From assembly GCF_003334315.1 (NCBI RefSeq), contig NZ_QOWR01000083.1: 12,666 nt of DNA. One strand, written 5' to 3'. A model generated the notes under the pieces. That model searched no databases, was not told the origin of the DNA, and saw nothing but the letters and a program-made list of their open reading frames with translations. The position numbers and the translations under genes are program-made. Position 1 is the first letter of the stretch. Each line of letters opens with the position of its first letter. Shown here piece by piece: positions 9,501 to 9,578 of the stretch. This DNA comes from Escherichia coli. GTDB taxonomy: Bacteria > Pseudomonadota > Gammaproteobacteria > Enterobacterales > Enterobacteriaceae.

Positions 9501-9545
9501 TAGAAATATGAATAAAAATAATGGGCTACCAAAAGTAGCCCATTG

Positions 9546-9578
9546 ACAAAAAATGCGGCGATACTGGAAGGTATCGCC
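9546..9578 (-). terminator. Rho-independent terminator downstream of chiA
   Basis: On the minus strand: GGCGATAC-CTTCCA-GTATCGCC followed by GCATTTTTTG. Located 8 nt after the chiA stop. Confidence 0.65.

Follow-up and report, generated by a model that had tools for sequence, protein, structure and literature searches.

A tandem pair of hairpins between chiA and bfd in Escherichia coli: a probable Rho-independent terminator with a conserved distal hairpin

The two hairpins that separate chiA from the bfd-bfr promoter of Escherichia coli probably constitute a tandem ('U-shaped') Rho-independent terminator, in which the distal hairpin (H2) is the principal and conserved element and the stop-proximal hairpin (H1) is an accessory one; the probability of this reading is put at about 0.75. 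H2 combines all the sequence features of an intrinsic terminator with a visible structural constraint, and is thus most likely the main terminator of chiA. The arrangement is real but ordinary, an instance of a known terminator type. Its value is mostly one of annotation, in that it shows where chiA transcription most likely stops in strains of the E. coli K-12 type, and it is of use for engineering at the chiA locus and for terminator prediction. A modest general point is that a comparison across lineages, not a look at the U-tracts of a single genome, singles out the distal hairpin as the maintained one, and that, when an mRNA is translated, a hairpin lying as close as 7 nt to the stop codon probably does not do the terminating.

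The window, i.e. the whole 12.7-kb stretch of DNA that was analysed, is an E. coli K-12-type gsp/bfr/bfd/chiA/tufA region, whose open reading frames were named from the RefSeq annotation of near-identical DNA (Table 1). Coordinates of MG1655 (NC_000913.3) are obtained by adding 3457574 to those of the window. The hairpin stretch is identical to that of E. coli K-12 MG1655, and the 241 nt around the hairpins contain a single difference, at position 9457. The chiA-bfd junction was found in 3161 of 5426 complete E. coli genomes, which carry chiA-bfd-bfr-gsp as in the window.

Table 1. Features of the window, in window coordinates, together with the stop-proximal hairpin (H1) of the compared lineages.
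Feature	Position	Strand	Description	Basis
gspL, gspM, gspO		+		RefSeq annotation of near-identical DNA
bfr	8675-9151	minus		
bfd CDS	9223..9417	minus	64 aa; first gene 3' of the hairpins	ORF list and RefSeq annotation
bfd-bfr promoter	9442..9470	minus	sigma-70; TTGAAA (9470-9465), 17 nt, TATTTT (9447-9442)	
H2 U-tract	9503-9519	minus	AUUUUUAUUCAUAUUUC	
H2	9544-9520	minus	10-11-bp stem AAUGGGCUAC(U)/(G)GUAGCCCAUU; 3-5-nt U-rich loop UUUU(G)	
H1 tail and inter-hairpin spacer	9556-9545	minus	GCAUUUUUUGUC, 12 nt	
H1, E. coli	9578-9557	minus	8-bp stem GGCGAUAC/GUAUCGCC, loop CUUCCA, 7 nt after the chiA stop codon; tail GCAUUUUUUGU	
chiA stop codon	9588-9586	minus	TAA	
chiA CDS	9586..12279	minus	897 aa; bifunctional chitinase/lysozyme	ORF list, translation, RefSeq annotation (identical DNA)
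tufA 3' end	chiA-side end of the window		upstream of chiA	
H1, L011			stem CGGCCACC/GGUGGCCG; tail UUUCCCCU	
H1, L109			stem CUGAAGCCAUCAA/UUGAUGGCUUCAG; tail AUAAAAAAU	

The order on the minus strand is chiA stop codon, AUGUGUU, H1, spacer, H2 and U-tract, with H2 starting 42 nt after the stop codon and 12 nt beyond H1. The tail of H1 contains six U (9553-9548), preceded by GCA between the stem and the U run, and the H2 stem is followed by AUUUUUAUUCAU, with AUUUUUAUUC standing directly 3' of the stem. From this layout an RNA 3' end would be expected near 9513-9511 (MG1655 3467087-3467085). The first-pass annotation had described two consecutive hairpins between chiA and the bfd promoter, and their coordinates and sequences proved right, including the GGGCTAC/GTAGCCC core at 9523-9541. 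Their anatomy agrees with its proposal that they insulate the promoter as terminators: both are stable, G+C-containing stem-loops on the chiA strand, 3' of the gene, both were called terminator-like on the minus strand by a terminator scan, and both precede the bfd-bfr sigma-70 promoter. In the scheme of Gupta & Pal, two hairpins on the same strand count as tandem when their spacer is shorter than 15 nt, and here it is 12 nt (9556-9545).

The 101-nt RNA spanning the pair folds into exactly H1 and H2 as independent hairpins at -35.9 kcal/mol (z = -7.3), and none of 200 shuffles folded as well. The individual folding energies are -15.4 kcal/mol for H2 and, for H1, -11.7 kcal/mol with the A allele of its loop and -15.2 kcal/mol with the G allele. 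A d'Aubenton-Carafa-type score was erratic with modern energy parameters and depended on the chosen start of the tail, and was not relied on.

The whole window has only six separate perfect hairpins, taken as those with stems of 8 bp or longer and loops of 3-8 nt; the raw count, overlapping registers included, is nine, against 1.3 +/- 1.2 in composition-preserving shuffles counted alike. Four of the six are placed just 3' of minus-strand stop codons, namely those of bfr, chiA (two) and tufA. The remaining two, with perfect 8-bp stems at 914-934 (GGCGAGAT...ATCTCGCC) and 1035-1055 (CGGTATTC...GAATACCG), are the only perfect hairpins of the window away from gene ends, and both are inside a 493-aa plus-strand ORF (845-2326), which is presumably gspE, judged by its position.

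The terminators of tufA and bfr resemble the chiA pair in being perfect hairpins directly after minus-strand stop codons, but each is a single hairpin with a Term-seq 3' end beside it, whereas chiA has two hairpins. In the complete MG1655 Term-seq tables, which cover three conditions, minus-strand ends are listed at 3470093 for the tufA terminator (window 12519) and at 3466218 for bfr (window 8644), with no further end between the two. The tufA hairpin, AAAAGGGCGC-TTCG-GCGCCCTTTT (12522-12545), has an A-tract/U-tract extension. The bfr hairpin, CGGGAGGG-TTCT-CCCTCCCG (8648-8667), stands between the convergent genes gspO and bfr. Read on the bfr strand it lacks a U-tract, but Term-seq places the primary 3' end of bfr next to it, which indicates that hairpins without a U-tract, like H1 of the comparator lineages, can mark RNA ends. 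The Term-seq tables of Adams et al. 2021 list nothing under chiA, bfd or coordinates 3467xxx, and the TERMITe supplements have no 3' end at chiA/bfd. Since chiA is silenced by H-NS in K-12 (PMC5797941), the absence of chiA 3' ends is uninformative about the hairpins.

Comparator loci were sought with the ChiA C-terminal domain in species-representative genomes and then by exact look-ups of Bfd, and three lineages have chiA followed by bfd: E. coli; L011, which is near-identical to L104-L108 and L110; and L109. The order at the comparator loci is chiA, then bfd-bfr-gsp, and their Bfd is named Superficieibacter sp. by its source. The 3' 1.3 kb of chiA shares 79-80% identity with E. coli in both L011 and L109, and these two share 84% with each other. 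ChiA relatives of 72-74% identity (Franconibacter, Limnobaculum, Chimaeribacter) were unusable, having C-terminal extensions and no bfd synteny, and the Bfd variants of 88-91% identity returned by a protein search proved to be E. coli sequences altered by homopolymer errors rather than further lineages. Two metagenome DNA scans designed to exclude E. coli, one with a degenerate chiA 3' end and the other with the Superficieibacter-type bfd promoter, gave no match.

H2 is homologous in L011 and L109, where it reads UAACGGGUU...AACCCGUUA, then UUUUCAAUUG or UUUUCAUUUA, and its U-tract is kept as UUUUCAAUUGUGUUUAU in L011 and UUUUCAUUUAUGUUUAU in L109. A covariance model trained on the E. coli and L109 sequences alone detected the H2 of L011 with E = 8.5e-5. 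MAFFT misaligned the 5' arm of the L011 H2, and the alignment used was that of the covariance model built without L011. In this alignment 98% of the pair cells hold standard pairs and two positions have changed in a compensatory manner, 9542/9522 from U-A to C-G and 9538/9526 from C-G to U-A, the latter with its intermediate state, a U.G pair, present as a variant within E. coli. When the 3' partner was slid by 1-3 columns as a control, at most 51% of the cells were paired and no compensatory change appeared. The covariation score was reached by 20 of 500 shuffles, so that the statistics are weak, with three diverged lineages only. With the scanner that had picked out both E. coli hairpins, H2 alone was called terminator-like in L011 and L109.

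H1 presents another pattern. Each of the three lineages has a stable hairpin that begins 3-7 nt past the chiA stop codon, but its sequences are unrelated or barely alignable from one to the next (Table 1), so that its position is kept and its sequence is not, and a usable U-tract follows it in E. coli only. More distant chiA-like genes upstream of bfd were seen in two further loci: in L090 an AU-rich hairpin lacking a U-tract stands next to the stop codon, with a canonical terminator distal to it, and L091 has one canonical terminator only. Judged by these alignments, the conserved full terminator in the related bacteria is H2, not H1. The first-pass annotation had taken H1 for the strong terminator and H2 for an addition to it; the comparison points in the opposite direction, H2 being homologous, compensatory in its changes and still provided with its U-tract, and H1 being replaced and devoid of a U-tract outside E. 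coli. Conservation of both stems in related genomes, which had been suggested as a check, was found in different senses, the second stem being conserved as such and H1 by position, not by sequence. In L109 (1336-1404), H2 is situated between AUAAAAAAU upstream and UUUUCAUUU downstream, which gives it the shape of a bidirectional terminator, and the H1 of L109, which lacks a U-tract, is a perfect palindrome of 13 bp.

The textbook tandem terminator is rrnB T1-T2. Among the hairpin clusters that one survey found 3' of stop codons, those of two hairpins within 15 nt were the most frequent (PMC8355165). The chiA pair is like the tandem or 'U-shaped' terminators described there and in WebGeSTer (Gupta & Pal 2021, PMC8355165) in having two same-strand stem-loops within 80 nt of the stop codon, a short spacer (12 nt at chiA) and a U-rich tail on each E. 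coli hairpin. Nothing essential differs, although the chiA pair is asymmetric, with only the distal hairpin keeping its U-tract in relatives, and its proximal hairpin is within ribosome reach of the stop codon.

The effect of that reach has been described for an E. coli reporter, in which termination efficiency fell from ~90% to <10% when the stop codon was moved to 5 bp from the terminator, rose with stop-codon distance to a plateau beyond ~30 bp, and was freed from repression by the ribosome once translation was uncoupled (PMC4824070). In this position series of tR2 (Li et al. 2015, PMC4824070), the terminator at 5 bp was nearly inactive, its activity being regained by distance or by uncoupled translation, and H1 of chiA is at 7 nt; the series used a phage terminator in a synthetic reporter, and its extension to chiA is by analogy. 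By these distances, H1 would be largely masked on translated chiA mRNA and H2 would be free.

These comparisons suggest a division of labour between the hairpins. H2 (9544-9520 with its U-tract) would be the principal, evolutionarily maintained terminator of chiA, lying at +42 outside the reach of a ribosome on the stop codon. On translated chiA mRNA, the terminating ribosome would cover the 5' arm of H1 and largely keep this hairpin from forming in time, and H1 would terminate mainly untranslated transcripts; with its six U, the E. coli H1 may nevertheless terminate well by itself. In processed RNA, H1 could act as a second 3'-end stem-loop that shields the coding region from 3' exonucleases. 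Together, H1 and H2 would keep transcription from chiA, or read-through from the very strong tufA unit, out of the bfd-bfr promoter, and such shielding from upstream transcription would be a reasonable consequence of their location between chiA and that promoter. Actual termination at the hairpins, their division of labour and the insulation of bfd are what we infer from this arrangement.

It is also conceivable, albeit doubtful, that H1 is a translation-gated element which has been selected for its position rather than its sequence, and that the fate of the RNA depends on chiA translation. In such a case, the ribosome would mask H1 on translated transcripts, which would then end at H2, and untranslated or spurious transcripts running through the H-NS-silenced chiA would fold H1 and be either stopped or stabilised differently.

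Other explanations of the hairpins are less consistent with these data. That H1 alone terminates chiA and H2 is a redundant or neutral palindrome is unlikely: the six consecutive U after the E. coli H1, its passing of the terminator scan and the possible extension of its stem by pairing of an upstream A-tract with the U-tract would all suit such a role, but H2 is the better conserved hairpin, with its compensatory changes and U-tract kept through three lineages, the H1 U-tract is absent from both Superficieibacter-like lineages, and ribosomes cut a terminator at a distance such as the 7 nt of H1 to <10% (PMC4824070). The first-pass annotation had also allowed that H2 might be part of a regulatory RNA structure or a binding site, and neither suggestion found support: no Rfam family matches, the half-site is not conserved, and a G.U variant breaks the DNA palindrome. 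As for RNA, a small regulatory RNA released from the chiA 3' UTR is very unlikely, even though the E. coli layout of an internal hairpin, UUUUUU and a terminator hairpin with a U-rich tail recalls an Hfq-binding module composed of H1, a U-rich linker and H2 with its U tail. The linker is not conserved, being UUUCCCCU in L011 and AUAAAAAAU in L109; no relevant publication came up for chiA together with RIL-seq; and Term-seq in three conditions gave no RNA end at the chiA 3' region, the gene being silent in those sampled. A search of Rfam 15 at relaxed E-values returned no family at the gathering threshold and only sub-threshold chance matches, the best overlap being the L20 leader (17.4 bits against a threshold of 58.7, E = 2.2).

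As for DNA, the 10-bp inverted repeat of H2 is perfect, and its centre lies ~60 bp upstream of the -35 hexamer and ~95 bp upstream of the transcription start expected from the -10 hexamer; H2 might on that account bind a dimeric regulator of bfd-bfr, or belong to a Fur site, an H-NS site or an upstream promoter part, and not act as RNA. This is most unlikely, since it is the pairing and not the half-site that is conserved (AAUGGGCUAC versus UAACGGGUU), an E. coli variant retains G.U pairing in the RNA while breaking the symmetry of the DNA, and the U-tract is conserved on the chiA strand. The AT-rich stretch after H2 has a weak likeness to a Fur box, 11/19 at 9505-9523, but this score is frequent by chance, being reached at 60 positions of the window, and this candidate site was discarded. 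That H1 and H2 derive from a palindromic repeat scattered through the genome, such as a REP/BIME-like or miniature mobile element, would account for the replacement of H1 by unrelated palindromes in related lineages, as mobile hairpins might do, but is extremely improbable. Multiple copies per genome were not seen: the 101-nt region and H1 alone each occupy one place per genome in the 3161 E. coli genomes, at relaxed E-values too, and this candidate was likewise discarded.

Within E. coli the region hardly varies. Identity over the 101 nt is at least 99% in 3015 of the 3161 genomes, and variation this low is uninformative about the structure. In H1, the change of A to G at 9565 in the loop closes a ninth base pair and leaves a UUCC tetraloop. 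The A/G polymorphism at this position is probably common, the base having been confirmed in about a dozen loci read directly; 1246 genomes differ at one position of the 42-nt H1 query. In H2, C to U at 9538 retains a G.U pair in the RNA and breaks the DNA palindrome, and U to C at 9528, found in L100 and L103, places an A.C mismatch in the upper stem.

In 2233 other E. coli genomes of the 5426, tufA is directly upstream of bfd without chiA. The bfd and bfr alleles of this haplotype are only ~78% identical to those of the window, a lone prepilin peptidase gene takes the place of the gsp operon, and the only hairpin of the spacer is the tufA terminator. The E. coli tufA-rpsJ interval comes in two deeply diverged haplotypes. 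They share their sequence as far as the tufA terminator (GGGCGCTTCGGCGCCCTTTTTGC), terminator included, and part immediately beyond it, which assigns H1 and H2 to the chiA-bearing block. Engineered strains in which chiA has been replaced still have both hairpins.

The bfd-bfr promoter begins 49 nt beyond H2 and is conserved in L011 and L109, and the same -35 and -10 hexamers have been given for the chiA/bfd spacer (PMC3946193). A Fur-box-like stretch in this promoter (9451-9469) matches the consensus at 12 of 19 positions. The difference at 9457, where the minus strand has C in the window and T in MG1655, falls within this stretch and the promoter spacer, and neighbouring positions of the promoter are variable among other E. 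coli lineages.

Two records retrieved along with these loci deserve a remark. E. coli strain MEW (L006) retains chiA and has an IS1B element next to the bfd promoter region, with a truncated gspD; as no gene is annotated between gspD and IS1 or between IS1 and chiA, it appears to lack the genes from the remainder of gspD to bfr, along with most of bfd. A UniProt/nr entry (P0005) named 'Endochitinase 11, Metarhizium anisopliae' has 98% identity to the C-terminal domain of E. coli ChiA, which suggests a bacterial sequence under a fungal name.
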